Shown one piece after another: positions 34,509 to 55,046 of a stretch of 64,000 nt of DNA. The stretch covers positions 13,357 through 77,356 of the forward strand of contig JAGWIS010000001.1 of the NCBI GenBank assembly GCA_028866135.1, read 5' to 3'. The notes beneath the pieces were generated by a model. It did no database searches. It saw nothing but the letters and a program-made list of their open reading frames with translations, and had not been told where the DNA came from. The stretch's first letter is position 1. Every line of letters begins with the position of its first letter. The stretch is from Patescibacteria group bacterium. Its GTDB lineage: Bacteria; Patescibacteriota; Minisyncoccia; Phycocordibacterales; Phycocordibacteraceae. Position numbers and translations under genes: made by a program.

Positions 34509-34998
34509 CGAGAAGAACATCCATCTCGTCTTCGACGTAAGCCTCTGGCTGAAGGCTGTCTTCGCGTTTGGAGAGATTCTATCGGGTATCGCGACGTATT
34601 TCGTCTCAAAGGAGCTTCTCGTACAAATAATCTTTCTCGTCACGAAGGCAGAGTTTGCCGAGGATCCGCACGACCGGCTCGCGAACTACCTGCTCCACGC
34701 CGCACAGAATCTCTCAATCGGAGCGCGCGATTTCGCCGCGATATACCTCATCGCCCACGGCATCGTGAAGCTCTGGATCATCGCGGGCCTTCTGCGCAAG
34801 AAGCTTTGGTATTACCCGACCGCCATGATTGTTTTCGGTCTCTTCATCGTCTACCAGCTCTACCGGTTCGCCTTTACGCATTCCGTTCTTCTTATCCTCA
34901 TCACTATCCTCGATCTCATCGTCATCGGACTCACGTGGCATGAGTGGCGGTACCTGAGTCGCGTCCTGAAAAAAAGTGCGGCATCGTCCGGACAGTAG
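34468..34998 (+). CDS. DUF2127-like membrane protein.
   Basis: It has 4 TM helices. The start is likely the TTG at 34501, immediately after the PAP2 stop, rather than the listed overlapping ATG. Confidence 0.4.
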
Positions 34999-35560
34999 CG
35001 CGAGAAAATGGACAATACCTGCGCGCCGGTCGTGGATCCCATCCGCGCGAGCACGATGAAGCAGATGTTCGAGAAGGTCGGCAACGAGCGGTGGAGAACC
35101 GGCCGAAGCACAGGTTCCAGGATTTCATCTTCACCAAGCTCATGCTCTGCGGGGAGTGCGGCTCGGGTATCACAGCCCAGGAGAAGCAGAAGGGCCTTGC
35201 GAGCGGCGGCCTGGCCTTCTATGTCTACTACTCCTGCCGCAGGTCCAAAGACCGCGCATGCAAGAATCCGTACATACGCGAGGACCGGCTGATCGAACAA
35301 CTGCTCGCGCTCCTCGGCGAGGTATCGATAGACGAGATAGGGGCGCGGCACCTTATCGAGAAGGAAGTATCCCGATACAACAAGCTGCGGACGGCGATGC
35401 GCGACGGGAGCGAGAAAGTGAAAGCGGACGAGATGGACACGTACGGCGATACGCGAAGTACTTGCTTGAGAACGGCACATTGCCCGAGAAGCGGGAACTC
35501 CTGAGCCATCTCAAGGAAAGGATCGTGCTGAAAGAGCGGAAGATCGCACTCGAGAACTGA
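34944..35560 (+). pseudogene. Large serine recombinase remnant. The N-terminal catalytic domain is missing and the rest is spread over three frames.
   Basis: One frame has the recombinase zinc-ribbon region [19 protein letters not shown]...[33 protein letters not shown] second frame has a recombinase-domain-like segment [14 protein letters not shown] third has the C-terminal coiled-coil tail [36 protein letters not shown]. Confidence 0.55.
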
Positions 35561-35663
35561 CGCAAAAGACGCGATTATGATCGCGTCTTTTGCGGCAAAT
35601 ACCCCTGACGGTACCGCACCAAATTCGAGGCCAGACGGTCTCAAATAGGGATGCTGACTGCTG

Positions 35664-35735
35664 TGCCGATGAGTGGAATCGAACCACTGTCTAGGGCTTA
35701 TGAGTCCCTCGTTCTAACCATTGAACTACATCGGC
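35664..35735 (-). tRNA. tRNA-Met (anticodon CAU, elongator type or Ile2), no CCA encoded.
   Basis: Fold: acceptor GCCGATG/CATCGGC, D arm GTTC-AATGGTTA-GAAC, anticodon loop CTCATAA, T arm AGTGG-TTCGATT-CCACT, discriminator A. Confidence 0.7.
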
Positions 35736-35942
35736 AAAGTGAGGAACAATATGACTGTCCTCAGTTATATTTTCCGAACGCAGCCGATGCAAGCCTTCTT
35801 ACATCGGCGAGCGAGAGCATACGGAAATGTATGTCCCCATACATTTCCGTATGCCTCGAGCGAGCCGGATGAAAGCGTGCAAGCAACGCTTACAGCGGCA
35901 ATTCATCGGTTCGTTACTGAAACACTACCAAAGGCTTCCTGT

Positions 35943-36683
35943 TCAGACAATGTAAGAAGAGAAGTCGCTCGTCATCGTTGCAGTGCCGCGAGCATCGATT
36001 GCGTAACCCTCAAAACCAGGAAGGTTTTCGATGAATGCGATGCCTGCCTTCCCCATCGCGAATGCTGCCGTCGCGAAGCGATCGGCCTCAAGCACGTCCG
36101 GACCGATGACCGTGATGCTCACGATTTCCTTGAGCTCTTGCTTAGGCGTGCGAGGATTATAGATATGTGCGCCGCGGATATAGGAGCCCGAGGTCGCGAC
36201 CCCCTTCCCTCGCGGATAGATGACCTTCACCACTTCATTTATAGAGAAAGGACTTCTGATGCCGACGCTCCAATCTTTACCCTCGGCATTCACGCCTCCC
36301 ATGGCGATGTCGCCGCCAGCGTTCACGAAATAATTTTCATGCCCTGCGCGCCGTATGAGTGCGGCCGTATTTAGTATTGCCCACCCTTTCACGATGCCGG
36401 AGGGGTCGAGGAATCCGTCCGGACGGCGCATGTCGAAGTACCCGTTTGTCTCTTTCTTCGTCTTTTCCGCGAGCGCAAACACTTCTCGCATCTCCGGACT
36501 CATCGCAGACTCCTTGATTTCTCCGCGATTGATGCGCGAAATCTCGCTGCTCTCTTTGTAGGTACTGAAGCGTTCGTCGACGGCGACCAGGTACGCAAAT
36601 GCCGCCTCAAGTGCCTCGCGGGCATGGGGGTCGACGATTTCTATCTCTATCGGCATACCCATGATGATCCGTGTCTCCTTCAT
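35943..36683 (-). CDS. apbE: FAD:protein FMN transferase (ApbE family).
   Basis: It has ApbE-like blocks (GGIVKGWAI, NAGGDIAMGG, VATSGSY). The start is taken at MKETRI. Confidence 0.65.
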   Translation of the reverse strand: MKETRIIMGMPIEIEIVDPHAREALEAAFAYLVAVDERFSTYKESSEISRINRGEIKESAMSPEMREVFALAEKTKKETNGYFDMRRPDGFLDPSGIVKGWAILNTAALIRRAGHENYFVNAGGDIAMGGVNAEGKDWSVGIRSPFSINEVVKVIYPRGKGVATSGSYIRGAHIYNPRTPKQELKEIVSITVIGPDVLEADRFATAAFAMGKAGIAFIENLPGFEGYAIDARGTATMTSDFSSYIV

Positions 36684-36745
36684 ACGCCTATGATACGCCC
36701 CGCATGAGGCTTTCATTTCATTTCCGCTTCCTCTAGAATGGGCGC

Positions 36746-37747
36746 ATGATTCACTACTTTTCGGGAGAGCCGTGGGAGGAGGACTACGTGCGCGGGAAAT
36801 TCGCCGGAGAGGAAATCAGCTTTCATCAAGGAACCCTCGCCGCTTCTCCGGATCTTGCCGACCCAAACGCGCAAGTGCTCTGCACGTTCATCGACTCGCC
36901 GATAGGCAAAGCGGAGCTTGACCGCTTCCCCGCTCTAAAGCTCATCGCGACGCGCTCGACCGGCTTCGATCACATCGACCTTGCGGAAACGAGGAAGCGC
37001 GGCATCGTTGTGGCAAACGTGCCCTTCTATGGTGAGAATACCGTCGCTGAATTCGCCTTCGCGCTCCTTCTCGCGCTCTCGCGACGCATCATCGACGCCG
37101 ACGAGCGCGTGCGCGAAGCAGGCACCTTCTCCCCCATCGGGCTGCGCGGCTTCGATCTCGCCGGAAAGACGCTCGGCGTCGTCGGCACCGGGCACATCGG
37201 CGCGCACGTGATCCGCATGGCGAAAGGCTTCGGCATGAAAGTCATCTGCTTCGACGCATATCCGAATGCGGACCTCTCCCACACGCTCGATTTCCCGTAC
37301 GTTTCGCTCCAAGAATTGCTCGCGACTTCCGACATCATTACCCTCCACGTCCCCTACAACAAAGAGACGCACCATCTCATCAGCCGGGAGAATCTCGCGC
37401 AGGTGAAAAAAGGCGCGTACCTTATCAACACCGCCCGCGGCGCGGTCGTCGAAACGGCGGCGCTCGTCGAAGCGCTTCAAAGCGGAGCAGTCGCAGGCGC
37501 CGCGCTCGACGTCCTCGAAGAAGAAGGCGCGCTCTCCGACGAGGCGGCATTTCTCACGTCTGATCACCCAAGCGAAGAGCGGATGAAGACCGCGCTCGCC
37601 GATCACTACCTCATCAATCATCCCCGCGTCATCGTGACGCCCCATCTCGCCTTTAATACGATTGAAGCGGTACGACGCATCCTCGATACGTCCATCGAGA
37701 ACATCCAGAACTTCATCAAGGGTTCGCCTACGAACGTCGTCTCTTGA
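36746..37747 (+). CDS. D-isomer-specific 2-hydroxyacid dehydrogenase.
   Basis: It has the NAD-binding GVVGTGHIGAHVIRMAKGFGMKVI and the catalytic R/E/H pattern (TARGAVV...HLAF). Confidence 0.75.
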   Translation: MIHYFSGEPWEEDYVRGKFAGEEISFHQGTLAASPDLADPNAQVLCTFIDSPIGKAELDRFPALKLIATRSTGFDHIDLAETRKRGIVVANVPFYGENTVAEFAFALLLALSRRIIDADERVREAGTFSPIGLRGFDLAGKTLGVVGTGHIGAHVIRMAKGFGMKVICFDAYPNADLSHTLDFPYVSLQELLATSDIITLHVPYNKETHHLISRENLAQVKKGAYLINTARGAVVETAALVEALQSGAVAGAALDVLEEEGALSDEAAFLTSDHPSEERMKTALADHYLINHPRVIVTPHLAFNTIEAVRRILDTSIENIQNFIKGSPTNVVS

Positions 37748-37782
37748 AAAACGCCCGTTTCAGGGCGCTATACTGAAGCGGC

Positions 37783-38343
37783 ATGAATGAAAAGCTCTCG
37801 CAGAAGACCGACGAGGAGCTTGCTGCTTTGGTGCAAGGAAAGAATGAGGAGGCGTTCGGTGTACTTATGGATAGGTACCAGAAGAAACTTCTTCGCTACG
37901 GGAGAAGATTCCTTCTTGAGCTGGCGCCCATCGAAGATGTCGTTCAAGAGGTATTCATTAAAGCGTATGAAAACATCAGGAGCTTCGACACCACGAGACC
38001 CTTTTCGCCCTGGATATACCGTATCGCCCATAACATGTTTATAAATACGTTGAGGAAGAATAGCCGTACGCCGTTTATCACGATCGACCTTGATACGATC
38101 TCGGCGCACGCCGCCTATGAGATCGATCCGGCGGAAGACGAGGAGCAAGCGCATACGCGCGCGCTCATCGATCGCGGATTGGAAAAACTCCCTCCTATCT
38201 ACCGCGAAGTGATCATTCTCTATTATCTTGAGCAGCTCTCTTATCAGGAAATCGCGGAGGTGCTTCGCGTGCCTCTTGGAACCGTCGGCATCCGCCTCTC
38301 TCGAGCGCGGGAGGCGCTTCGAACCTATGTTGAAGGAGAATGA
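37783..38343 (+). CDS. ECF-subfamily RNA polymerase sigma factor.
   Basis: It has region 2 (YRIAHNMFINTLR) and region 4 (LSYQEIAEVLRVPLGTVGIRLSRARE). Confidence 0.8.
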   Translation: MNEKLSQKTDEELAALVQGKNEEAFGVLMDRYQKKLLRYGRRFLLELAPIEDVVQEVFIKAYENIRSFDTTRPFSPWIYRIAHNMFINTLRKNSRTPFITIDLDTISAHAAYEIDPAEDEEQAHTRALIDRGLEKLPPIYREVIILYYLEQLSYQEIAEVLRVPLGTVGIRLSRAREALRTYVEGE

Positions 38344-39037
38344 CATTCGGAAAAGCGTGCTCGAGAAGATCCGCTCGGGTGAGGTCCCCATGCGCTCCCG
38401 GGCGTATTTCGCGCTGCGCACCGTCCTTGTCGTTGTTATGTCTCTGCTCATGCTTGCCGCCGCCCTCTTCGCGCTCAGCTTCATGTCCTTCAGCGTGCAC
38501 GAGAGCGGGGTGCGGTTCCTGCTCGAGTTCGGCGAGCACGGACTCGTAGCGTTCGTCGCGCTCTTTCCGTGGCATCTCCTCCTCATTTCCCTGCTCATTC
38601 TCGTCATCCTCGAATTCCTGCTCAACCGCTTCACCCCCGCATACCGGTTCCCGTTCCTGCGCACCTTCCTGTGGATACTCGTCGCCCTCATCGCCGGCAG
38701 CACGCTCGTAGGATTCACGCCGCTGCATTCCTTCCTCCTCTCGGAGGCAGATAGAAACGAGCTTCCGGTCCTCGGCCCCTTCTACGAACAGGTCCACGAC
38801 TCGCATCAGGAACAGGGCGTCTACCGCGGAAGCGTTTCCTCCGTCGACGCATCGGGGTTCATCATTGCGCATGACGACAGCGACAAAGATTCGGACGAAG
38901 GGTCATGGCACATCGTCCCACCTCCAGGATTCGATCTCGGCACGCTCTCGGTCGGCGAGAAAGTCTACGTCGGAGGACGCCTGCAAAGCGGAGTCGTATA
39001 CGCATACGGCGTCCACTCCCTTTCGGGTGAGGAGTAA
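38327..39037 (+). CDS. Putative anti-sigma factor / membrane protein.
   Basis: It overlaps the sigma factor stop by 17 nt. It has several TM helices, and the start is taken at MLKENDIRKS. Confidence 0.45.
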   Translation: MLKENDIRKSVLEKIRSGEVPMRSRAYFALRTVLVVVMSLLMLAAALFALSFMSFSVHESGVRFLLEFGEHGLVAFVALFPWHLLLISLLILVILEFLLNRFTPAYRFPFLRTFLWILVALIAGSTLVGFTPLHSFLLSEADRNELPVLGPFYEQVHDSHQEQGVYRGSVSSVDASGFIIAHDDSDKDSDEGSWHIVPPPGFDLGTLSVGEKVYVGGRLQSGVVYAYGVHSLSGEE

Positions 39038-39075
39038 TGTGAAATACCCGGTCGTATCCGCGCGTATCTACAGTA

Positions 39076-39705
39076 TTGCCTATGAACGCGCCAGAAAGAG
39101 CTTCCGCCGTCCGGACGATAGCGCGGCCTCCCCTTACGAAAAGCAAGCGCTCGCTTTCTTTGGGATTCCTGTTCGTCTCCGCCGCATACGTCGTGTGGCA
39201 GTACTTCGGCGGCCCGCAAGCCGCGGCGATAGACTCCGTCGCATCGAGCCAGACGACGCCCGCTCCCCTCACTCCTGGCCAGTCCTACAAGGCCGCAAGC
39301 GAGGCGCTTTTGCAGACCCTCTCCGCCTTACCCGCAGCTTCCCCCGCTTCCAACCCTCCGCAAGCAAAAACTCCCGCTCCGGCGATGCAACCTCCTCCCG
39401 CTCCGCGGCAGATCGGGGGACTCTACGCCGACGGTTCCTACGCCGGCAGCCCGGCGGACGCATACTACGGCACCGTGCAGGTGAAGGCGGTCGTGCAAAA
39501 CGGACGGATCGCCGATGTGCAATTCCTCCAGTACCCGAGCGATCGCAGCACTTCCCGTTACATCAACGGCCAGGCGATGCCGCTCCTGACCCAGGAAGCC
39601 ATTCGGGCGCAGAGCGCGCAGGTCGACGGCGTCTCCGGCGCGACCTTCACGAGCCAGGCGTTCGCGGAATCGCTCGCCGCGGCGCTCGCGCAGGCGAAAA
39701 AATGA
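39076..39705 (+). CDS. Secreted FMN-binding domain protein, an ApbE flavinylation substrate.
   Basis: It has a signal/TM anchor and a Pro/Ala-rich linker. The FMN_bind domain carries the flavinylation motif DGVSGATFTS. Confidence 0.6.
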   Translation: MPMNAPERASAVRTIARPPLTKSKRSLSLGFLFVSAAYVVWQYFGGPQAAAIDSVASSQTTPAPLTPGQSYKAASEALLQTLSALPAASPASNPPQAKTPAPAMQPPPAPRQIGGLYADGSYAGSPADAYYGTVQVKAVVQNGRIADVQFLQYPSDRSTSRYINGQAMPLLTQEAIRAQSAQVDGVSGATFTSQAFAESLAAALAQAKK

Positions 39706-39706
39706 G

Positions 39707-41221
39707 ATGACCTTCGTCGACGACATCCTCGATCGGATCACGATGTACCGCCTCGTGCTTTACTACCTCGCGGCGCTCCTCGTCGCGGGGGCTTTCTTCG
39801 CGTTCTTCGGCGCGCTCTCCTTCAATCCCGCGAATCTCGCGTTCTCGACGCTCATCATCCTCGGGACATGCTGGGTCACGAACGCCGTATTCGCGAAAGG
39901 ATTCGGCGCGGCGCCAAACGTCGAGTCGATCTACATCACGGGCTTCATCCTGGCGCTCATCATCACGCCCGTCTCCTCTACCGACTACGCCGGCGTCGGC
40001 TTCCTCGTCTTCGCATCGGCATGGGCGATGGCATCGAAATACCTGATAGCCGCCGGCAACAAGCACCTGTTCAACCCGGCGGCCTTCGGCGTCGCGCTCT
40101 CGGCGCTTGTAATCAACCACTCGGCGACTTGGTGGGTCGGCGGCAATCTCCCGCTCCTCCCCTTCGTATTCTTCGGAGGACTGCTCATCGTCCGGAAAAT
40201 CCGTCGATTCGATCTCGTCGCGTCATTTTCAATCGCGGCACTTCTCACTATCGTCCTTACCTCCGGCAGCAGCGATTATCTGGCTCCCGTGGCGCAGACA
40301 TTCCTCCATTCGTCATTCTTCTTTTTCGCTTTCGTCATGCTCACCGAGCCCTTGACCATGCCGCCCAATCGGCTGCTGCGGATTCTCTATGGAGCCATCG
40401 TCGGATTTTTCTTCGCCCCCGCCATCCACCTCGGCTCCTTCTACTTCACGCCTGAGCTCGCGCTTCTCATCGGCAATCTCTTCGCGTATGCCGTGAGTCC
40501 GAAAGGGCGCTTTCTACTGACGCTCATTGAAAGAAATAACCTCGGCACGGGCGCCTATGAATTCGTATTTGCGCCGGATCGAGCGTTCACGTTCCGACCG
40601 GGACAATACATGGAATGGACACTCGGGCACCGTTTCCCCGACGATCGCGGCAATCGCCGCTACTTCACCATCGCCTCTTCTCCGACTGAAGATACGGTGC
40701 GGCTCGGGGTGAAGTTTTACGCGCCGGAAAGCAGCTACAAGCGCGCGCTGTGGAATATGCAGCTCGGCGACACCGTATCCGCCTCCCATCTCGCTGGAGA
40801 TTTCATCCTGCCAAAAGACACTGCGAAGAAGCTGGTATTCATCGCCGGAGGCATCGGCGTGACGCCGTTCCGCAGCATGGTGCAGTACCTCATGGATATG
40901 AAAGAAAAACGCTCCGTCGTGCTGCTCTACGCGAACAAGACGGCAGCTGAAATCGCATATAAGGGCGTCTTCGATACGGCGGGACGCGCAATCGGCATGA
41001 AAACTGTGTACGCTCTTTCGAACGAACCGAATCCGGTGCCTGGCATCTATGCCGGCATGATTGACGGAGCGCTCATCAAGCGGGAAATTCCCGACTACAA
41101 AGAGCGCACTTTTTATATTTCCGGCCCCCACGGCATGATCACCGCGTTTCAGAAGGTGCTTCGGGAGATGGGCGTCTCGCCGCTGCGCATCAGGACGGAT
41201 TACTTCCCCGGCTTTGCCTGA
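39707..41221 (+). CDS. Membrane oxidoreductase: an N-terminal multi-TM domain fused to an FNR-like FAD/NAD(P)H-binding domain.
   Basis: It has the C-terminal RRYFTIASSP (FAD RxYS motif) and FIAGGIGVTPF (NAD-binding). The N-terminal approximately 270 aa are hydrophobic. Confidence 0.6.
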   Translation: MTFVDDILDRITMYRLVLYYLAALLVAGAFFAFFGALSFNPANLAFSTLIILGTCWVTNAVFAKGFGAAPNVESIYITGFILALIITPVSSTDYAGVGFLVFASAWAMASKYLIAAGNKHLFNPAAFGVALSALVINHSATWWVGGNLPLLPFVFFGGLLIVRKIRRFDLVASFSIAALLTIVLTSGSSDYLAPVAQTFLHSSFFFFAFVMLTEPLTMPPNRLLRILYGAIVGFFFAPAIHLGSFYFTPELALLIGNLFAYAVSPKGRFLLTLIERNNLGTGAYEFVFAPDRAFTFRPGQYMEWTLGHRFPDDRGNRRYFTIASSPTEDTVRLGVKFYAPESSYKRALWNMQLGDTVSASHLAGDFILPKDTAKKLVFIAGGIGVTPFRSMVQYLMDMKEKRSVVLLYANKTAAEIAYKGVFDTAGRAIGMKTVYALSNEPNPVPGIYAGMIDGALIKREIPDYKERTFYISGPHGMITAFQKVLREMGVSPLRIRTDYFPGFA

Positions 41222-42129
41222 TGGGCGCCCGCGCCGCTATACTTCTTCGCATGCTTCCCCGGCTCCGCACGCTCGCCCTCCTTGTCGTCTTGTGCGCCGC
41301 GGTCTCGGCAGGCGTGTTCCTGGTTGCGCATGACCTCCTCGGCACGTACCGTCTCGCTCTGCATGTCTTTTCGCAAAACGAAGCGGCGTATGCCGAATTC
41401 GGCACCGTTTCGGCGGAAGTCGCCGCGGGAAGCGCCGCCTCCGCCCGGAGCGTGTACGTGCCGATCCTCGTCTATCACATCGTCCGCCCGAGCTATCCGA
41501 GCGACAGCGCCGCCGTGCGCCGGCTCGCGCTCACGCCGGAAACCTTCGACGCCGAACTGTCGCATCTGTCCGAAGCCGGGTATCGCGTCGTTTCTTTTGG
41601 CGACCTCGAAGCGTATTTCGCGAGCGGCACGCCGCTTCCGGCAAAGCCGATACTGCTATCGTTCGACGACGGCTGGCAAAATCAGTTCACCTACGCGTTT
41701 CCAATCCTCAAGAAGCACGGATTTTCGGCGACGTTTTTCGTATTCACGAATGCGATCGGCCGGCGCGGATTCATGACGTGGGACGAGCTTAAGCGGATGC
41801 GGGAGGCGGGGATGACGATCGGCGCCCACAGCCGCTCCCACCCATACCTCACGAAAATCGCCGACCCGGCCGCGCTATGGGACGAGATAGCCGGCAGCAA
41901 GGCAGTGCTCGAACAGCGTCTCGGCGTGCCCGTCACCGTATTCGCGTATCCCTTCGGGCAATACGATCCATCCGTCGTGGCGGACGTGGCCCGGGCCGGC
42001 TACCGCCTCGCGCGCGGGGATTTCTACGCGGGAGGTATGGTCTCGGCAGAGCGCCCCTATGAGCTCGGCGCGATGAACGCGCCGACGACCACGGAGCTCT
42101 TTGCGAAGAAATTCCCGGCCGCCCGCTAG
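41221..42129 (+). CDS. Polysaccharide deacetylase (NodB / CE4 family).
   Basis: It has the motifs LSFDDGWQNQ, HSRSHP and FAYPFG, plus an N-terminal TM/signal segment. Confidence 0.65.
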   Translation: MGARAAILLRMLPRLRTLALLVVLCAAVSAGVFLVAHDLLGTYRLALHVFSQNEAAYAEFGTVSAEVAAGSAASARSVYVPILVYHIVRPSYPSDSAAVRRLALTPETFDAELSHLSEAGYRVVSFGDLEAYFASGTPLPAKPILLSFDDGWQNQFTYAFPILKKHGFSATFFVFTNAIGRRGFMTWDELKRMREAGMTIGAHSRSHPYLTKIADPAALWDEIAGSKAVLEQRLGVPVTVFAYPFGQYDPSVVADVARAGYRLARGDFYAGGMVSAERPYELGAMNAPTTTELFAKKFPAAR

Positions 42130-42130
42130 C

Positions 42131-42697
42131 ATGGAAAAGCCCGATGAGGAGCTGGTTGTCGAGCATCTCGCAGGAAATGAAGAAGCATTCACGCTCCTTG
42201 TGAAGCGCCACCTGAAGGGGATCTACTCCTTCGTCGCGCGCCTGGCCGCAGAGGAGGCGGACGACATCGTGCAGGATACGTTCCTGAAAGCATGGAAGGG
42301 CTTGCGCTCCTACGACTCGCGAAGCGCGGCATTCAAGACGTGGCTTACGAGGATCGCGCGCAACGCCGCCATCGATCATCTGCGAAAAAAGAAGCCGCTC
42401 GTCTTTTCCGACTTCGGAGACGGAACCGAGGACGGCTTCCCGGACCCGGAAGATTCAGAACCACTGCCGGATGAGGCGTTCGCGCGAGCGGAAGACGCAC
42501 AAGCTCTTGAGGAGGCTCTCAAAAGCCTGCAGCCTCTCTATCGGGAGGTGATCCTTCTCCGCGATATGAGCCAATTGACGTTCGAAGAGATGGGCGCCGT
42601 CCTCGGCGCGCCTGTCAACACCGTGCGGAGCCGCTACCGCCGAGGGCTTGCCCGGATGAAGCGCCTTCTCGAGAGTGTGCACCAAAAAGGGATGTGA
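42131..42697 (+). CDS. ECF-subfamily RNA polymerase sigma factor.
   Basis: It has region 2 (TWLTRIARNAAIDHLR) and region 4 (LTFEEMGAVLGAPVNTVRSRYRRGL). The start is taken at MEKPDEE. Confidence 0.8.
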   Translation: MEKPDEELVVEHLAGNEEAFTLLVKRHLKGIYSFVARLAAEEADDIVQDTFLKAWKGLRSYDSRSAAFKTWLTRIARNAAIDHLRKKKPLVFSDFGDGTEDGFPDPEDSEPLPDEAFARAEDAQALEEALKSLQPLYREVILLRDMSQLTFEEMGAVLGAPVNTVRSRYRRGLARMKRLLESVHQKGM

Positions 42698-42715
42698 CTT
42701 CGTATACATGGGTAC

Positions 42716-43114
42716 ATGGCTGGAAATCCAGGAACCCTCTTCAGGGAGATCGATCCGCCGCACGGACTCCTTCCCTCAGTCCTGGCGCGGATCGCGGTCG
42801 CGCGCCGCCGGGCCGCCCGTCTCCGGTTCGCGGCGTCCGGCACGCTTGCGCTCGTCTCCGTGCTCATTCTCGTCCCTGCCGTGCAGTATGCCGCAAGCGA
42901 ATTCTACGCCTCCGGATTCTCCGACTACGCCTCGCTCTTCTTCGATAGTCTTTCGGGAGGATTCTCCCGCGAGCTTCTCTACTCCCTCTTGGATTCCCTG
43001 CCCTCGCTTGCGCTCCTGATCCTTGCCTCCGCCGCCGGCGCGCTTCTATGGTCGCTCAAGCGTACGAATCGCGACGCGCGGATCGCTTTCGCTCCCCTCT
43101 CGTTACCGGCCTAG
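42716..43114 (+). CDS. Putative anti-sigma factor (single TM).
   Basis: It immediately follows the ECF sigma factor and has one central TM helix. Confidence 0.4.
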   Translation: MAGNPGTLFREIDPPHGLLPSVLARIAVARRRAARLRFAASGTLALVSVLILVPAVQYAASEFYASGFSDYASLFFDSLSGGFSRELLYSLLDSLPSLALLILASAAGALLWSLKRTNRDARIAFAPLSLPA

Positions 43115-43123
43115 CTCAGAACC

Positions 43124-43573
43124 ATGGGTACTCTTGAAACTATCCTGTCCTCGAAAAAAGTACGCCTCGCCGCGGGCGTGGTCGGGGCTCTCATCCTTGC
43201 GCTCCTCATTTTCCACGCGGGCGTCGTGGTCGGAGCGCATCGCGGATCATCTTTTCGCCGCGACGCAGACGGCGGATTCAGGCATCCGTTTTTCCCGGGC
43301 GGCTTCATGCTGCCGCACGGATTCATCCCGAACGCTCATGGCGCCGTCGGGACCGTCTCTGCCGTGTCGCTGCCGACATTCACCATCGAGACGCGTTATG
43401 GGACGAGCCAGACCATCCTCGTCGGCACGTCCACGATTCTTCGCGCCGCGGGAGACGCCTCTGCCACACGCATCTCTACGGGAGACAACGTCATCGTGCT
43501 TGGCGAGCCGGACGGCCAGGGTCGCATTACAGCGACCTTCATCCGCATCTTCTCCTCAGCGCAGAAACCATGA
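43124..43573 (+). CDS. Small membrane-anchored periplasmic protein, a paralog of 47489-47881.
   Basis: It has an N-terminal TM anchor and a beta-rich C-terminal domain. It is similar to the protein after the MacB-like permease (shared I.TR.G.S...L...T.IL, G..V.V.G motifs). Confidence 0.4.
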   Translation: MGTLETILSSKKVRLAAGVVGALILALLIFHAGVVVGAHRGSSFRRDADGGFRHPFFPGGFMLPHGFIPNAHGAVGTVSAVSLPTFTIETRYGTSQTILVGTSTILRAAGDASATRISTGDNVIVLGEPDGQGRITATFIRIFSSAQKP

Positions 43574-45348
43574 CGATGAAAAAGATTCCGTCCTGGTTCT
43601 TTTTTGTAAAAGAGTACGCGGTCGCGCACAAGACGGTCGCCGCGATAGGGGCGCTCGTCGTGCTCTACGCCGGCTACCATGCCTACAGCATCATTACCGC
43701 CCCTTCGACCGCGCCCCGCTACGTTACGACGACGGTCTCGACCAGCACCGTCGTCGCCTTCATCGACGAGACCGGGCAGGTTTCCGCAAGTTCGAATATC
43801 GACGTGCAATCGAAGTCCTCCGGCGAAATACTGTCAATGCCCGTGACGGCGGGGCAGCATGTGGACGCCGGAGCGGCACTCGCCTATCTCGATCCCACGA
43901 CGGCCGAACAGAACGTATCAAGCGCCCGACAGGCGCTTGAGTTAGCGCAGATAGCGCTCGCCAAGCTCCAGGAACCGGCGACGGACTCCGCGCTCACAGC
44001 CGCGGAGAACGCGGTCGCGGCGGCACAGGCGAATCTCGTGAATGCGCATGAGACCGGCTACAACGACGTTTCCTCCTCGTTCCTCGATCTGCCAAACGCG
44101 ATCACCAGCCTCAACAGCGTCCTCCATGGCAACACCGTTCCGGGGCGCACGAATCAGCAGAACGAGAGCGCCTATAGCGACATGATCGTCTCGTACGACA
44201 GCGGCGTCGTGCAGTATGAGACCATCGCGGAGAACGCGTATCAGGCCGCCTACGCCGCGTACACACAGACGCTCTCCGATTTCAAGTCGACGCCGCGCGA
44301 TGCGGACGATGCGAAAATGGAAGCGCTGATCACCGAGTCGTATCAGACGGCCGCACTCATCTCCGACGCGCTCAAAGCCTCGACCAATTTCCTCAACTTC
44401 GTGAACACGACCCTTTCGAATCACCAGCTCACGCTCCCCTCCACGCTCGCCGCACACATAAGCTCCCTTACCGGCTACACGACGACGACCAATGGCCACG
44501 TCGCGGCGCTCTCGAGCGACGCGGCGAGCGTGACGAGCTCCGAGCGCTCGCTCGCGGCGGCGAAAGCGTCGCTTGCGGAACTTCAGGCTGGTGCCGATCC
44601 GCTCGACATCCAGTCAAGCCAGCTTTCAGTCCAGATGAAGCAGGATGCGCTTTCGGTGGCCGAACAGGATCTTGCGGACACGGTTGTCCGGGCGCCTTTT
44701 AGCGGCACCGTCGCGAAGCTCGACGTGCAGCAGTACCAGACGATCGGCAGCGGCACCGCGATCGCCACGATGGTGAGCGACAACCAGAGCGTAGCCGTGT
44801 CGGTAAACGAAGTGGACGCGGCAAAGCTCAAGGTCGGACAGAAAGCGACTCTTGCGTTCGACGCGCTGCCGGGCATTTCGATCGCCGGAACCGTCTCCTC
44901 GGTGAACACGATCGGGACGGTCTCCTCCGGCGTCGTCTCCTACGGAGCCGTCATCACGTTCGACACGCCGAACCCAAGCGTGAAGCCCGGCATGAGCGCG
45001 ACCGCGAACATCGTCATCGGCACCGAAACAGGCCTTCTCGTGCCGCAAAGCGCGGTGAAGACGTCCGGCGGCCAGAAATACGTCGAGGTGTTTAATCCCC
45101 CGCTTGCCGGGAGTACCTCGAGCGCGGGGGCCGTCTCGGGAACGGCGCCGGAGCGAATAACTGTTGTCACCGGCCTTTCCGACGACACGAACATCGTCAT
45201 CGAAAACGGCCTCGCTGCCGGCGCCCAGGTCGTCGAGAGGACGATCGCGGGAGCGGCCGCGGCGCCGACAAGCGCCGCCCAGAGCACGTCGATCTTCGGC
45301 GCGGGACGCGGCGGCATCGGCGGCGGAGCGCGGGTTCTCACGCCATGA
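43570..45348 (+). CDS. Efflux membrane-fusion protein (HlyD/MacA family) with a long coiled coil.
   Basis: It has an N-terminal TM anchor, an extended Ala/Gln-rich coiled coil, and C-terminal beta-barrel/lipoyl-like segments ([13 protein letters not shown]). Confidence 0.65.
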
Positions 45349-46082
45349 TCGAGTTCAGGAACATCACCAAAACGTACGGCGCCGGCCCCGAGGCGTACGC
45401 CGCTCTTCGCGGCGTTTCTTTTTCCATCGACGAGGGAGAGTTTGTCGCGATCATGGGCCCCTCGGGAAGCGGCAAGTCCACGCTGATGCACATCCTCGGA
45501 TGCCTCGACACGCCGACCTCGGGCATCTATGAGCTCGACGGGAAAGATGTCTCGACGATGAGCGACGACGAGCTCGCCTTGATTCGCAAAGACAAGATCG
45601 GTTTCGTTTTCCAGTCCTTCAACCTCCTCCCCCGCACGACGGTCCTCCGGAACGTCGTGCTGCCGCTCGTCTACGCCGGCATCCCGCCCGAGGAGCGCGA
45701 TACGCGGGCCGCGGCGGCGCTTACCGCCGCCGGGCTCACCGAAGAGCACTTTCTCCATCTCTCGAACCAGCTCTCGGGCGGGCAGGTTCAACGGGTGGCC
45801 ATCGCTCGCGCGCTCGTGAACGACCCCGCGCTCATCCTTGCCGACGAACCGACCGGGAATCTCGACAGCCGGACGAGCCTGGTCGTGCTCGGCACCCTGC
45901 AGGAGCTCAACAGGAAACACGGACGTACGATCATCCTCATCACGCACGAGCCGGACATCGCCGAGCACGCCGATCGCATCATCCGCCTTCGGGACGGCCT
46001 CATCGTCTCCGACGAGAAGAACGCCGCGCCGCGCGACGCGGCGCGGGAGACGAAACTGTACGACGAACCCGCCCGCGTATGA
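45345..46082 (+). CDS. ABC transporter ATP-binding protein (MacB/LolD-like).
   Basis: It has Walker [10 protein letters not shown], signature [15 protein letters not shown] and Walker [11 protein letters not shown]. Confidence 0.85.
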
Positions 46083-46193
46083 CCCGACACACTGAAAAGG
46101 CGTTGTCCGACACTTTGCGGCAAAGTGTCGGACGCTGTGCTGTACCTCGCGATATGGAAAGAACGCCGTGCGTGGTTCTGCCAGTAACAGCAT

Positions 46194-47462
46194 ATGGGGC
46201 ATGCGACGCCTTTTAGTGTGACGGGTATGAGAACCCGCGACATCCTGCAGGAAACGTACGCTGCCCTGTCCGCAAATAAAGTGCGGTCGGGCCTCACCGT
46301 GCTCGGCATCGTCATCGGCATCGCATCGGTCATCGCGCTCACCGCGATCGGCCAGGGCGCGCAGAGTTCGGTACAGGCATCGATCGAATCGATCGGCTCG
46401 AATCTCATCGAGGTGCTCCCGGGGGTGGCGCGGCAGATCGGTTTCGGCGCGTCAGGCGGGCGCGGCACGGCCCGTTCGCTCACGCCCGCGGATGAAGACG
46501 CGATCGCGCTCGTCGCGAATGTCGCCGCCGTCTCGGGCGAATATTCAGGCCGTTATCAGATCGCGGCGGCGGGCGCCAACACGAACACCTCGGTCGTCGG
46601 CGTGAATGCCGCGTATGCCACGATACGCAATCTGGTCATGGACCAGGGCTCCTTCATCACCGACAGCCAATCGACGTCGCTCGCGAAAGTCGCCGTCGTG
46701 GGGCCGACCGTCGTCACCGACCTCTTCGGCGCGACGGCCGCCGCGAGCGACGCGCTCGGAGAGCACATCCGCCTCAACAACCTTCTGTTCACGATCGTCG
46801 GCGTCACCAAGACGAAAGGAAGCTCCGGTTTCGGCAATCAGGACGACACCGTCTACGTCCCGCTCGGGACGGCGCTCCAGTATTTCGCCGGAACCGGCAA
46901 CGACTACCTCTCGACGATCGATATCCAGGCGGCGAGCCAGGCGAGCATGACGCAAGTGCAGAACGATGTCACGGCGCTCCTCATGACGCGGCATAATATA
47001 AGCGATCCGACGAAAGCCGATTTCAGCATCCTCAACCAGGCGGATATCGTTTCCGCCGCGTCGAGCGTAACGCAGACCTTCACCATCCTCCTTGCGGCGG
47101 TCGCGGGCATCTCGCTTCTCGTCGGCGGCATCGGCATCATGAACATGATGCTCACGACCGTGACCGAACGCATGCGGGAGATCGGCCTCCGGAAAGCGAT
47201 CGGGGCGACGAAGTCGGATATCAACCGCCAGTTCCTCGCGGAAGCGGTCGCGCTCACGTTCGTCGGCGGCGCGATAGGCATCGCGCTCGGCTGGAGCATC
47301 TCCTCCGTCATCACGCTCCTCGGTCTCGTGGCGGCGCAGGTGACGCTCTCCTCGATCCTGCTCGCCTTCGGCGTCTCGGCGGCTATCGGCATCGTCTTCG
47401 GCTGGTACCCCGCTCGCAGGGCGTCAAATCTTAATCCCATCGATGCCCTGCGCTATGAGTAG
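46194..47462 (+). CDS. ABC transporter permease (MacB-like, FtsX fold with periplasmic domain).
   Basis: It has an N-terminal TM helix, a large periplasmic domain and a C-terminal FtsX-like 3-TM domain. The start is likely MRTRDIL at 46227. Confidence 0.75.
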   Translation: MGHATPFSVTGMRTRDILQETYAALSANKVRSGLTVLGIVIGIASVIALTAIGQGAQSSVQASIESIGSNLIEVLPGVARQIGFGASGGRGTARSLTPADEDAIALVANVAAVSGEYSGRYQIAAAGANTNTSVVGVNAAYATIRNLVMDQGSFITDSQSTSLAKVAVVGPTVVTDLFGATAAASDALGEHIRLNNLLFTIVGVTKTKGSSGFGNQDDTVYVPLGTALQYFAGTGNDYLSTIDIQAASQASMTQVQNDVTALLMTRHNISDPTKADFSILNQADIVSAASSVTQTFTILLAAVAGISLLVGGIGIMNMMLTTVTERMREIGLRKAIGATKSDINRQFLAEAVALTFVGGAIGIALGWSISSVITLLGLVAAQVTLSSILLAFGVSAAIGIVFGWYPARRASNLNPIDALRYE

Positions 47463-54986: not shown

Positions 54987-55046
54987 GCTTCCACAGTACA
55001 CCTGCGACCCTTATTTTTCAGCACGCCTATGCGATAGTGTAGGGTA

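Follow-up and report, generated by a model that had tools for sequence, protein, structure and literature searches.

The locus described here is probably a Patescibacteria (CPR) member of the known NQR/RNF-like flavinylation-associated electron-transfer system, in which intracellular NAD(P)H would supply electrons to a covalent flavin outside the cell; in this lineage it would belong to an ECF regulon, and the deacetylase and dehydrogenase genes beside it are best read as neighbours only. The functional unit most likely comprises three genes, encoding two structural subunits (a membrane-anchored FMN_bind protein and a 504-aa membrane-FNR fusion) and their maturation enzyme, ApbE. Both this kind of system (Méheust 2021; Huang 2024) and the membrane-FNR fusion are already known, and the locus adds another member. 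All positions refer to the window, the 64-kb stretch of DNA that was analyzed. Every open reading frame of the initial annotation was recovered where it had been placed and with the domains assigned to it, and the core of the extracytoplasmic flavin electron-transfer unit that it proposed was borne out, given that 53 of 80 related loci, from Patescibacteria and Chloroflexota, carry FMN_bind, ApbE and the fusion in that order as a closely packed operon on one strand; for this reason we read the three as a single unit. The fusion, which had been singled out as notable, proved to be the hallmark of the family, since the NQR/RNF-like system is operationally defined by PF03116 and PF00175 occurring in one protein (Méheust 2021, eLife, PMC8238504). 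Clusters of this system were reported primarily from Actinobacteria and CPR (PMC8238504). With that system the locus shares the identical architecture (one chain joining an NqrB/RnfD-like membrane domain and a PF00175 NAD-binding domain), an NqrC/RnfG-like FMN_bind subunit with a flavinylation motif, an ApbE within the cluster and a membrane subunit without flavinylation site. It differs in that ApbE lies outside the operon, divergently and 2.4 kb upstream, with a sigma/anti-sigma pair and the dehydrogenase gene between ApbE and the FMN_bind-fusion genes. The family comprises 343 clusters at 50% identity (E ≤ 1e-30) and occurs in at least 558 GTDB species genomes, as against 127 NQR/RNF-like clusters in the original count (PMC8238504); the smaller number may owe something to the signal-peptide filter used in that first pipeline. 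Unbiased clustering of the flanks of 76 related loci revealed no conserved electron-acceptor or partner gene nearby, any further gene being limited to 18 of them at most.

The fusion ORF (39707-41221, + strand) begins with a membrane domain (residues 1-268; 39707..40510, +) for which 10 transmembrane helices are predicted with both termini inside, because K/R-rich loops (1-12, 114-123, 166-167 and 264-275) alternate with K/R-poor ones. Since the sequence similarity of this domain to PF03116 is marginal (28.5 bits; cut-off 27.7), its assignment leans on the predicted fold (AF2 model, pLDDT 87). A Foldseek search of the PDB with the isolated domain returned NqrB/RnfD chains as all of the best 15 matches (TM-score 0.55-0.72, E ≤ 5e-4); urea transporters came next (E ~ 0.1), with urea and ammonium channels at ranks 16-32, and no ferric-reductase-domain structure was among the 50 matches listed. 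At the sequence level, phmmer found no match between the domain and the NqrB/RnfD sequences in the PDB, and hhalign aligned residues 156-261 with residues 230-336 of E. coli RsxD (single sequence; probability 70%), including the L-T-[DE]-P motif. On the predicted structure, the membrane domain is thus of the RnfD/NqrB and not the ferric-reductase fold, which settles a comparison that the initial annotation had proposed. The fusion contains no D..[ST].A[ST] flavinylation motif, whereas RsxD carries D181-G-I-S-Q-A-T187, and the stretch from the FNPA motif to the aligned C-terminal part measures ~30 aa in the fusion vs. ~105 aa in RsxD, an equivalence anchored on the sequence motif rather than on a structural alignment. 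No conserved Cys or haem-type motif was found in the fusion, in which one C/S column is conserved. The C-terminal FNR-type FAD/NAD(P)H-binding domain (residues ~269-504; 40511..41221, +; PF00175, E 6e-14) is predicted to be cytoplasmic; Foldseek pairs it with the FAD domains of NqrF, the reductase domains of flavohaemoglobins, Fre and cytochrome b5 reductase, the highest TMt being 0.86. Its cofactor/substrate motifs R-x-Y/F-T-x-A-S and G-G-x-G-x-x-P and its C-terminal Phe, here R317-R-Y-F-T321-I-A-S324, G381-G-x-G-x-x-P387 and D498-x-F500, show little or no variation across 81 fusion sequences, and the conservation of an acidic residue at position 415 makes NADH a likelier donor than NADPH.

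The FMN_bind subunit (39076..39705, +; PF04205, E 5e-10) is NqrC/RnfG-like and consists of an N-terminal membrane anchor, a Pro/Thr/Ala-rich linker and the FMN_bind domain. The ApbE target motif reported for it, DGVSGATFTS, is present as D184-G-V-S-G-A-T190-F-T-S, and the six frames of the window contain no other strict D-x-x-[ST]-G-A-[ST]. Among 71 homologues S-G-A is kept in 69-71, and the Thr/Ser at the attachment site, the loss of which had been named as a refuting observation, is conserved in all 71 (T in 58, S in 13). The protein had been described as secreted; the outside location agrees with the charge distribution, but N-terminally membrane-anchored is the better description, as six K/R residues precede the hydrophobic segment and the homologues start with MKK followed by 17-20 hydrophobic residues. 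Together with the K/R-poor, Pro/Thr/Ser-rich linker that follows in the homologues, this start is read as an N-in, C-out anchor. The topology expected in the initial annotation, which has the FMN_bind domain on the outer and the FNR domain on the inner side of the membrane, is therefore the one to which hydropathy, the positive-inside rule and the AF2 helices point.

The ApbE-family FAD:protein FMN transferase (35943..36683, -; PF02424, E 1e-42) is of a leaderless short form. Although its longest ORF (35943-36716, -) runs on to 36716, translation almost certainly begins at M12 (ATG 36683; product of 246 aa), the start seen in each of the 58 homologues; these begin MK[QE]TR..MGMP eight residues ahead of the conserved core, with an N-terminus that is not hydrophobic. 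Neither here nor in any of the 58 relatives was a signal peptide or lipobox found, a point missed in the initial annotation. The enzyme is alignable to E. coli ApbE (4xgw), and all 59 sequences compared retain unchanged the motifs S106-G-x-V-K-G, G135-D136, A174-T-S-G, G182-x-H184-I-Y-N-P and A211-D-R-F-A-T216, including the His that aligns with the catalytic base reported for ApbE. For canonical ApbE, periplasmic localisation is essential (review, PMC12052999), and a leaderless enzyme would thus conflict with a simple picture of extracytoplasmic flavinylation; with a target predicted outside, the model as drawn would be wrong on the maturation route or on the topology. Klebsiella pneumoniae likewise has an ApbE without signal peptide, which flavinylates a soluble fumarate reductase (cited in PMC12052999), but its substrate is a cytoplasmic enzyme, whereas the sole motif-bearing substrate here is predicted to be exported.

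Between the ApbE and FMN_bind genes lie the genes for an ECF sigma factor (37783..38343, +; Sigma70_r2 and r4_2 domains), most similar among NCBIfam models to SigW, under the cut-offs of those models, and for a protein predicted to span the membrane three times and to place an acidic C-terminal domain outside it (38327..39037, +). The latter gene overlaps the sigma stop codon, and its product, which matched no Pfam family, is a putative anti-sigma factor by position. Exact matches to the ECF-type promoter-like motif TGAAAT-N17-CGTATC occur only twice in the window on both strands. One precedes ApbE (36692..36720, -), with its -10 element ending 8 nt ahead of ATG 36683, and the other precedes FMN_bind (39040..39068, +), its -10 ending 7 nt ahead of TTG 39076 and 13 nt ahead of ATG 39082. 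Sigma homologues, adjoined by anti-sigma homologues, immediately precede the FMN_bind gene in four related loci (L009, L033, L039 and L078), and TGAAA[T/G]-N16-17-[CT]GTA is found at the same place in 5/5 loci with a homologous pair, against a background rate of 0.0044 per 100 nt per strand. The motif is similar to the TGAAAC / CGTA of B. subtilis sigma-W-class promoters (PMC5758882); a generic sigma-70 promoter and terminator scan of the region yielded nothing beyond chance. Because the motif is confined to these two sites in the window and recurs in all five pair-bearing loci, ECF-sigma control is indicated, and the pair is probably a regulator of the module beyond a mere neighbour. The initial annotation had overlooked this role. 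The module, including its displaced ApbE, thus appears to lie in the regulon of the adjacent sigma factor. The flavinylation papers PMC8238504, PMC10979944 and PMC12052999 mention neither an ECF-type promoter of an NQR/RNF-like module nor a leaderless ApbE of an NQR/RNF-like operon, and they describe no experimental study of the family.

In the mechanism that we propose, NAD(P)H would reduce the FAD of the cytoplasmic FNR domain, and the NqrB/RnfD-fold domain would then conduct electrons across the membrane, presumably on a non-covalently bound flavin, since the covalent-FMN loop is gone from this domain. The electrons would next reach the FMN that ApbE links by a phosphoester to Thr190 of the NqrC-like subunit on the outer face, and from there an acceptor encoded away from the locus. 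This NAD(P)H-to-outside direction has been proposed for the NQR/RNF-like system (PMC8238504), and the AlphaFold-multimer model of the Ktedonobacter complex (Huang 2024, PMC10979944), whose membrane subunit has lost the NqrB/RnfD flavinylation site, docks the FMN_bind subunit on the outer face beside the former NqrB FMN site. The closest structural matches of the membrane domain are in Rnf (RnfD/RnfG; PDB 7zc6, 9eri; E. coli RsxD; TM-score 0.66-0.72). Na+-NQR of Vibrio cholerae (PDB 7xk3, 8a1t) shares the NqrB fold of the membrane domain (TM-score 0.55-0.64) and, in NqrC, the S-G-A-T motif of the FMN_bind subunit; the FAD/NADH domain of NqrF resembles the FNR domain. Unlike Na+-NQR, the module has no NqrA, NqrD, NqrE or 2Fe-2S domain, its NqrF-like part is fused to an NqrB-like domain from which the covalent-FMN loop is deleted, and its electron flow is presumably one-way outward instead of a U-turn to quinone. 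NOX and ferric-reductase-domain oxidoreductases (Streptococcus pneumoniae NOX, PDB 8qta) likewise pass NAD(P)H electrons across the membrane by an N-terminal membrane domain and a C-terminal FNR module, and the FNR domains superpose (Foldseek ranks 5 and 14), but the membrane domain here is not a 6-TM bis-haem ferric-reductase domain. A functional analogue is the flavin-based extracellular electron transfer of the monoderm Listeria (FmnB, PplA, Ndh2, EetAB), which carries NADH-derived electrons to an ApbE-flavinylated surface protein by unrelated membrane components and a quinone intermediate. Its FmnB is a lipoprotein that is exported, and flavin is provided outside the cell by an ECF transporter dedicated to this task (PMC9973259); an exported lipoprotein ApbE, quinone-using membrane components and a flavin ECF transporter were not seen at the locus.

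The leaderless ApbE, found without export signal in 58/58 loci and unable to start further upstream there because it abuts the FMN_bind stop codon, would also fit an arrangement with all flavin domains on the cytoplasmic side, in which a membrane-tethered FMN_bind domain flavinylated there relays electrons from the FNR domain through the NqrB-like domain to a membrane-soluble or intramembrane acceptor, much like the riboflavin-to-quinone end of Na+-NQR. Cytoplasmic ApbE enzymes acting on cytoplasmic FMN_bind domains are known, as for the Klebsiella fumarate reductase (PMC12052999). We nevertheless regard this arrangement as unlikely, as the N-in, C-out signature of the FMN_bind N-terminus speaks against it. 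Moreover, CPR bacteria are generally considered to be without quinones. The published multimer model, with the FMN_bind subunit on the outer face (PMC10979944), also disagrees with it. A wider cassette, in which ApbE, the dehydrogenase, the sigma/anti-sigma pair, FMN_bind, the fusion and the deacetylase act together, for example in 2-hydroxyacid oxidation coupled to envelope polysaccharide modification, seems very unlikely. Its genes are co-directional and closely spaced, and the ATG of the membrane-anchored polysaccharide deacetylase (41221..42129, +; PF01522, E 1e-30) overlaps the fusion TGA by one base (TGATG), such that the two are taken to be co-transcribed here. ECF-controlled peptidoglycan deacetylases occur in Bacillus. 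Conservation largely refutes this idea, however: the deacetylase, which the initial annotation had counted in the cassette, lies downstream of the fusion in 1/80 related loci (L002), and deacetylase and dehydrogenase form no recurrent neighbour cluster. The 2-hydroxyacid dehydrogenase (36746-37747, +; PF02826/PF00389), near the module in 2/80 related loci, was ruled out as a member. Judged by gene neighbourhood, both are lineage-specific local passengers outside the functional unit.

That the locus is what decay has left of a complete Rnf or Nqr operon, without a function of its own, is exceedingly improbable. Just two of six kinds of Nqr/Rnf subunit are present and the membrane subunit lacks the covalent-FMN loop, as decay might leave it, but the 112 columns invariant among 49 sequences indicate strong purifying selection, the family is large, no reading frame is broken and different phyla keep the operon of three genes. 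Outward electron transfer by the NQR/RNF-like system remains our preferred reading. It is quite unlikely, in turn, that the two-subunit complex is a minimal redox-driven Na+/H+ pump or its reverse. Its fold is common to subunits of two known Na+-translocating complexes, NQR and Rnf, the membrane-embedded residues E73, K111, H120, N123, E214, E250 and N257 are invariant in 81/81 fusion sequences, and the family is highly conserved (66-76% identity for the 119 closest non-identical homologues). Current structural work implicates NqrD/E or RnfA/E and their Fe-S centre in ion translocation, and these are missing from the flanks of the 76 related loci analyzed. There is no direct evidence for ion coupling, and conserved polar residues are not specific to pumping, given the resemblance of NqrB/RnfD to urea and ammonium channels. 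Were such a pump nevertheless at work, it would provide a membrane potential to bacteria without a respiratory chain, or would spend that potential on uphill electron transfer.

In silico analysis of the region (ORF calling and Pfam searches) recovered every gene named in the initial annotation, each with the domains assigned to it there. ApbE (PF02424, E 1e-42) is encoded on the minus strand at 35943-36716, with a conserved ATG start at 36683, and is divergent from a D-2-hydroxyacid dehydrogenase gene at 36746-37747 on the plus strand. The latter is followed, on the same plus strand, by genes for an ECF sigma factor (37783-38343), a putative anti-sigma factor of 236 aa that matches no Pfam family and is predicted to span the membrane three times (38327-39037, overlapping the sigma stop codon), an FMN_bind protein of 209 aa (39076-39705; PF04205, E 5e-10), the 504-aa fusion of a membrane domain to an FNR module (39707-41221), and a membrane-anchored polysaccharide deacetylase (41221-42129) whose ATG overlaps the TGA of the fusion gene. 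The fusion scores 28.5 bits for PF03116 (NQR2_RnfD_RnfE) over residues 157-261, where the cut-off is 27.7, and matches PF00175 over residues 378-482 (E 6e-14). It is identical to an NCBI MAG protein of "Patescibacteria group bacterium", and its best GTDB-genome matches come from Paceibacteria/Minisyncoccota-type bins.

When each GTDB species was scanned through a single genome, at least 558 genomes proved to encode a relative of the fusion, and the loci around the best 80 of these (49-75% identity to the window fusion) were compared. Most of these loci are from Patescibacteria, in which many classes are represented, and at least 12 are from Chloroflexota. The results showed that in 53 of the 80 the genes lie in a tight same-strand operon in the order FMN_bind, ApbE, fusion, with frequent stop/start overlaps. 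A rearrangement sets apart the window and the loci closest to it (L001, L002 and L014), in which the ApbE gene has been displaced to a divergent upstream site; in the window it lies four genes upstream on the opposite strand, and the FMN_bind gene is immediately upstream of the fusion gene. The deacetylase had been proposed as a member of the cassette, a proposal that the comparison does not bear out, since among the 80 loci it lies downstream of the fusion gene in one other locus only (L002). The 2-hydroxyacid dehydrogenase is found nearby only in L002 and L008 and is not part of the unit either. A conserved acceptor or partner gene was sought by all-against-all clustering of flanking ORFs within 6 kb on either side of the fusion gene in 76 loci, and none occurred in more than 18; the recurrent flanking genes encoded ECF sigma factors, ABC ATPases and MacB/HlyD efflux components, each in at most 18 of the 76 loci. 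Given that the operon is so widely kept while other neighbours rarely recur, the functional unit is the three genes FMN_bind, ApbE and fusion, and the electron acceptor is not encoded with this unit in the loci compared.

The two halves of the fusion were characterized by structure prediction (AlphaFold2), which gave a pLDDT of 83.6 for the full-length protein. A Foldseek search with this model was dominated by FNR matches and was uninformative on the membrane domain; therefore, residues 1-269 were modeled separately (pLDDT 87.3). The C-terminal half superposes on NqrF, flavohaemoglobin reductase, Fre and cytochrome b5 reductase with a TMt of up to 0.86, and its FNR-family relationship is also visible at the sequence level. 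In an alignment of 81 fusion sequences little or no variation is seen in the FAD motif R317-R-Y-F-T321-x-A-S324, in the pyridine nucleotide motif G381-G-x-G-x-x-P387 or, close to the C-terminus, in D498-x-F500, and position 415 is acidic in all but one sequence (D in 48, E in 32), which, by likeness to NADH-specific cytochrome b5 reductase, gives a slight hint of NADH as the donor. For the isolated membrane domain, the top 15 PDB matches were all NqrB/RnfD chains (E 1e-5 to 5e-4, TM-score 0.55-0.72), and the next matches were urea transporters at E ~0.1. The choice between an RnfD/NqrB and a ferric-reductase-like domain, which had been left for such a check, thus falls to the RnfD/NqrB fold. 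No ferric-reductase domain was matched by Pfam in the fusion, and Foldseek of the membrane domain at E<=5e-4 gave NqrB/RnfD only; as modeled, the protein has no 6-TM bis-haem membrane domain and is not a NOX/ferric-reductase enzyme. Alignment by hhalign paired fusion residues 156-261 with residues 230-336 of E. coli RsxD, for which the sequence of an annotated record was used, and the L-T-[DE]-P motif falls within the aligned part. The kinship is visible only via Pfam, hhalign and the predicted fold: single-sequence phmmer of the membrane domain against the PDB returned no NqrB/RnfD protein and only noise (E 0.33), and a Smith-Waterman alignment with RsxD was set aside because its N-terminal half was misaligned. 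A conserved Cys pattern was also sought in the fusion alignment and none was found, so an Fe-S centre or c-type haem in the fusion is unlikely.

In E. coli RsxD the flavinylation motif is located at D181-G-I-S-Q-A-T187, in agreement with Thr187, which we take to be the flavinylated residue of RnfD. A second RsxD segment, L-L-S-G-A-T at about residue 278, which hhalign pairs with H201-S-S-F204 of the fusion, was considered as the flavinylation site and ruled out, the site that fits the motif being D181-T187. The motif D..[ST].A[ST] is absent from the whole fusion, and the distance from the FNPA motif to the aligned C-terminal part is about 30 residues in the fusion family versus about 105 in RsxD; since there is no motif anywhere and the loop is shortened, the fusion has no covalent-flavin site. 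The RsxD flavinylated loop is replaced by a short outer loop, Q-S-A-[S/T]-W-W (S in 42, T in 31), which in the window lies at residues 139-143 (40121-40135, plus strand), misfits the ApbE motif and has A140, W142 and W143 invariant in 81 of 81 sequences. This loop may be a remnant of the flavinylation motif or a flavin-contact site. The absence of the site is in line with the published finding that members of the NQR/RNF-like family have not kept the flavinylation site of NqrB/RnfD (Huang, 2024; PMC10979944). The pattern described there, a motif-bearing NqrC/RnfG-like subunit with a membrane subunit devoid of the NqrB/RnfD flavinylated Thr, is the one found here.

The operational definition of the NQR/RNF-like system is a PF03116 + PF00175 fusion in a flavinylation cluster (Méheust, 2021; PMC8238504), and the window protein carries an N-terminal PF03116 and a C-terminal PF00175 in one chain, with both folds confirmed by Foldseek. 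In contrast, Na+-NQR and Rnf proper bear covalent FMN on NqrB/RnfD through a D-x-x-S-x-A-T loop, which the window fusion lacks, and the flank clustering (76 loci, 6 kb on either side) found none of NqrA/D/E/F or RnfA/B/C/E as a recurrent neighbour; in the window itself the neighbours of the module are sigma factors, the deacetylase, efflux components, ABC transporters, PAP2 and DUF2127. With the other subunits and the covalent-FMN loop missing, the locus does not encode an Nqr or Rnf complex. Given that the PF03116 + PF00175 definition applies and that Nqr/Rnf proper and NOX/ferric reductases are excluded, it belongs to a known, experimentally uncharacterised class. The initial annotation was therefore right to recognize a flavinylation electron-transfer module, one that is itself published, and the direct fusion that it singled out as notable is already the published defining trait (PMC8238504). 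The original survey counted 127 NQR/RNF-like clusters, primarily in Actinobacteria and CPR (PMC8238504). The fusion family recovered here with the membrane domain alone (E<=1e-30) comprises 343 clusters at 50% identity and appears commoner in CPR than that count suggests.

The FMN_bind protein carries the motif D184-G-V-S-G-A-T190, 20 residues from its C-terminus, which is the only strict match to D-x-x-[ST]-G-A-[ST] in all six frames of the window. ApbE substrates are marked by D-x-x-[S/T]-G-A-[S/T], with the last residue as the acceptor (PMC12052999), and the FMN_bind protein is by this motif a predicted ApbE substrate. The target motif reported earlier in this protein withstood alignment, a Ser or Thr being kept at the acceptor site in 71 of 71 homologues (T in 58, S in 13) and the S-G-A core in 69-71. 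Nearly all of the homologues start with MKK, followed by 17-20 hydrophobic residues, a K/R-poor linker rich in Pro, Thr, Ser and Ala, and the FMN_bind domain; the window protein has six K/R before its hydrophobic segment. By hydropathy and charge bias, this N-terminus has the signature of an N-in, C-out signal anchor. A twin-arginine signal, as exporter of a pre-flavinylated folded domain, is not conserved among the homologues, in which RR is confined to doubtful N-terminal ORF extensions. In the fusion, K/R-rich loops (1-12, 114-123, 166-167 and 264-275) alternate with K/R-poor ones, a pattern that predicts ten TM helices and a cytoplasmic location of both termini and hence of the FNR domain. 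One sub-lineage, whose loci have a divergent ECF sigma gene but lack ApbE, encodes a further, shorter FMN_bind paralogue on the opposite strand upstream of the module (L004 5734-6141, L007 1469-1897 and L013 5257-5658, all minus strand).

The window ApbE shows the features of its family, namely PF02424, alignment to 4xgw, the catalytic His and the Mg2+/FAD-binding motifs. The motifs G-x-H184-I-Y-N-P, A-D212-R-F-A-T216, A-T-S-G and G-G-D are invariant in 59 of 59 sequences, and all motifs checked were kept, among them the D-x-x-x-T element and the His that aligns with the catalytic base described for ApbE; the roles of the remaining conserved residues are presumed. The base in question is His257, which acts as the general base of ApbE (PMC12052999). 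The protein is short (family median 248 aa) and lacks roughly segment 105-150 of E. coli ApbE in the 4xgw alignment. All 58 homologues, and the window protein from M12, open with MK[QE]TR[IL][IL]MGMP, with only eight residues ahead of the conserved core. Where the operon has its canonical order, this start codon touches or overlaps the stop codon of FMN_bind, and the true start is thus not further upstream. No hydrophobic N-terminus, secretion signal or lipobox was found in any of the 58 homologues or the window protein. With its motifs kept and an N-terminal signal missing, the enzyme looks active but cytoplasmic, while its sole evident substrate would be exported. Periplasmic localisation is described as essential for canonical ApbE, and cytoplasmic ApbEs are mentioned for cytoplasmic substrates only (2025 review; PMC12052999); a signal-less ApbE with an exported target is not addressed in PMC12052999, PMC8238504 or PMC10979944. 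Given that the seven-residue motif in an unstructured tag suffices for ApbE (PMC12052999), and that the motif lies so close to the FMN_bind C-terminus, flavinylation before Sec export is conceivable.

We next turn to how expression of the module might be regulated. A promoter-like sequence, TGAAAT-N17-CGTATC, lies at 39040-39068 on the plus strand, its -10 end 7 nt before the TTG at 39076 and 13 nt before the ATG at 39082 of FMN_bind. The same sequence is found on the minus strand at 36720-36692, ending 8 nt before ATG 36683, the ApbE start common to all homologues. These are the only two exact 12-base matches in the 64 kb, and the relaxed pattern TGAAAY-N16-17-CGTA also gives two matches in the whole window versus 0.24 expected. 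The pattern was defined after the 39040 site had been seen, so that the ApbE-side site serves as an independent test, for which the chance of a match in the ~40-nt stretch before ApbE is ~1e-4 or less. The motif resembles sigma-W-class ECF promoters, whose Bacillus consensus is TGAAAC at -35 and CGTA at -10 (PMC5758882). Moreover, TGAAA[T/G]-N16-17-[CT]GTA (background 0.0044 per 100 nt per strand) occurs directly after the anti-sigma stop codon in all five loci with a homologous sigma/anti-sigma pair upstream of FMN_bind (the window, L009, L033, L039 and L078), and in L039 upstream of the sigma gene as well. The features of an ECF regulon are thus present as a candidate bipartite promoter (-35 AAC/AAT, 16-17 nt spacer, -10 CGT) and an adjacent sigma/anti-sigma pair, and from these sequences the module is probably a target of the ECF sigma factor, with the displaced window ApbE probably still co-regulated with FMN_bind and fusion. 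The deacetylase of the window and L002 would then be carried on the module transcript. The short distances from -10 to start suggest leaderless or nearly leaderless mRNAs. A one-mismatch copy, TGGAAT-N17-CGTATC, lies within the fusion gene at 40751-40779 on the plus strand, ~440 nt ahead of the deacetylase start codon, and may either act as an internal promoter or have arisen by chance. A scan of 35500-43600 for generic sigma-70 promoters and terminators gave nothing above shuffled expectation. Across the family, CGTA[TC][ATC][AT] lies 5-65 nt from the start in 24 of 67 FMN_bind upstream regions versus 59 of 1018 control genes, and the 24 positive regions share a GCA[AC]C..AAA element 17 nt upstream. 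This second ECF-like promoter type, GCA[AC]C..AAA-N-CGTAT[AT]A, precedes FMN_bind in 23 loci besides the window (L004-L076), ten of which adjoin a divergent ECF sigma gene of a different group.

The wider neighbourhood holds several further features. Just beside ApbE, an ORF at 34944-35504 (plus strand), whose sole match is a PF13408 recombinase zinc beta-ribbon with no catalytic domain detected, adjoins a tRNA-Met (CAT) gene at 35663-35735 (minus strand); the two may be the scar of an integrated element, perhaps tied to the rearrangement that displaced ApbE. After the module, 42101-47462 (plus strand) encodes a second ECF sigma factor, a small membrane protein, a DUF5666 protein, an HlyD-like adaptor, an ABC ATPase and a MacB/FtsX permease; in L009 and L059 the set of sigma, small membrane protein and DUF5666 genes recurs immediately behind the fusion gene, and in L044 the sigma and DUF5666 genes do so. 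A stretch at ~3900-9000 with a GC content of 0.39-0.42 versus ~0.6 elsewhere, which encodes CYTH, GDSL lipase, NUDIX, AstE/AspA-like and APH-type phosphotransferase proteins, is probably a horizontally acquired island. Two P-type ATPases are encoded at 13590-15728 (plus strand) and 52617-55001 (minus strand), one with an N-terminal heavy-metal-binding domain and the other with a cation-ATPase N-terminus.

The best-supported model for the module is the published NQR/RNF-like electron path. NAD(P)H would reduce FAD in the FNR domain of the fusion; the next carrier would be a flavin, presumably bound non-covalently, in the NqrB/RnfD-like domain, from which electrons would go to the covalent FMN of the NqrC-like subunit on the outer face and finally to an acceptor outside the module. 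We infer each of these transfers, their direction, the intramembrane flavin and the acceptor from the observed domains, folds, conserved cofactor and flavinylation motifs, gene linkage and charge-based topology. The foremost rival keeps all flavin domains in the cytoplasm, where ApbE itself, with its signal-less N-terminus, would reside; set beside the signal-anchor signature of the FMN_bind protein, we judge this arrangement unlikely. A minimal ion pump, a reading that may be held against the Nqr/Rnf kinship of the membrane domain on one side and the missing Nqr and Rnf partner subunits on the other, we rate as less probable again. A wider six-gene cassette as the functional unit, as the packing of the genes around the fusion in the window might invite, is very improbable beside the rarity of these neighbours elsewhere, and a decayed remnant is scarcely credible next to the strong conservation of the family.

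Within the electron path preferred here, we tentatively advance a more specific reading, which we consider possible and hold at well below even confidence. With cytoplasmic FAD as its donor, a minimal, signal-less ApbE of ~248 aa would modify Thr190 while the FMN_bind subunit is still unfolded. The FMN-bearing tail of this subunit would then pass through Sec, and the finished two-subunit complex, turned on by a dedicated ECF sigma factor, would form an NADH-driven outward electron conduit in CPR bacteria without a respiratory chain. If true, pre-export flavinylation would amount to a novel way of maturing extracytoplasmic flavoproteins and would spare reduced-genome bacteria the export of FAD. 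Beyond the accounts in PMC8238504, PMC10979944 and PMC12052999, the present comparison adds the signal-less ApbE throughout, the ECF-type promoter common to ApbE and the structural genes, and the lack of a conserved acceptor gene. The first of these makes the place and time of flavinylation a concrete, testable question, and the shared promoter offers an experimental handle on the timing of module expression. The NQR/RNF-like system, so far defined by bioinformatics only, occurs widely among Patescibacteria and Chloroflexota and is strongly conserved there, as judged from the window and the 80 loci. To our knowledge, CPR bacteria are generally thought to have no electron-transport chains, and a self-contained path that takes NAD(P)H electrons out of the cell could therefore be their main means of disposing of reducing power, or could serve to reduce a target in the envelope or on the host surface.
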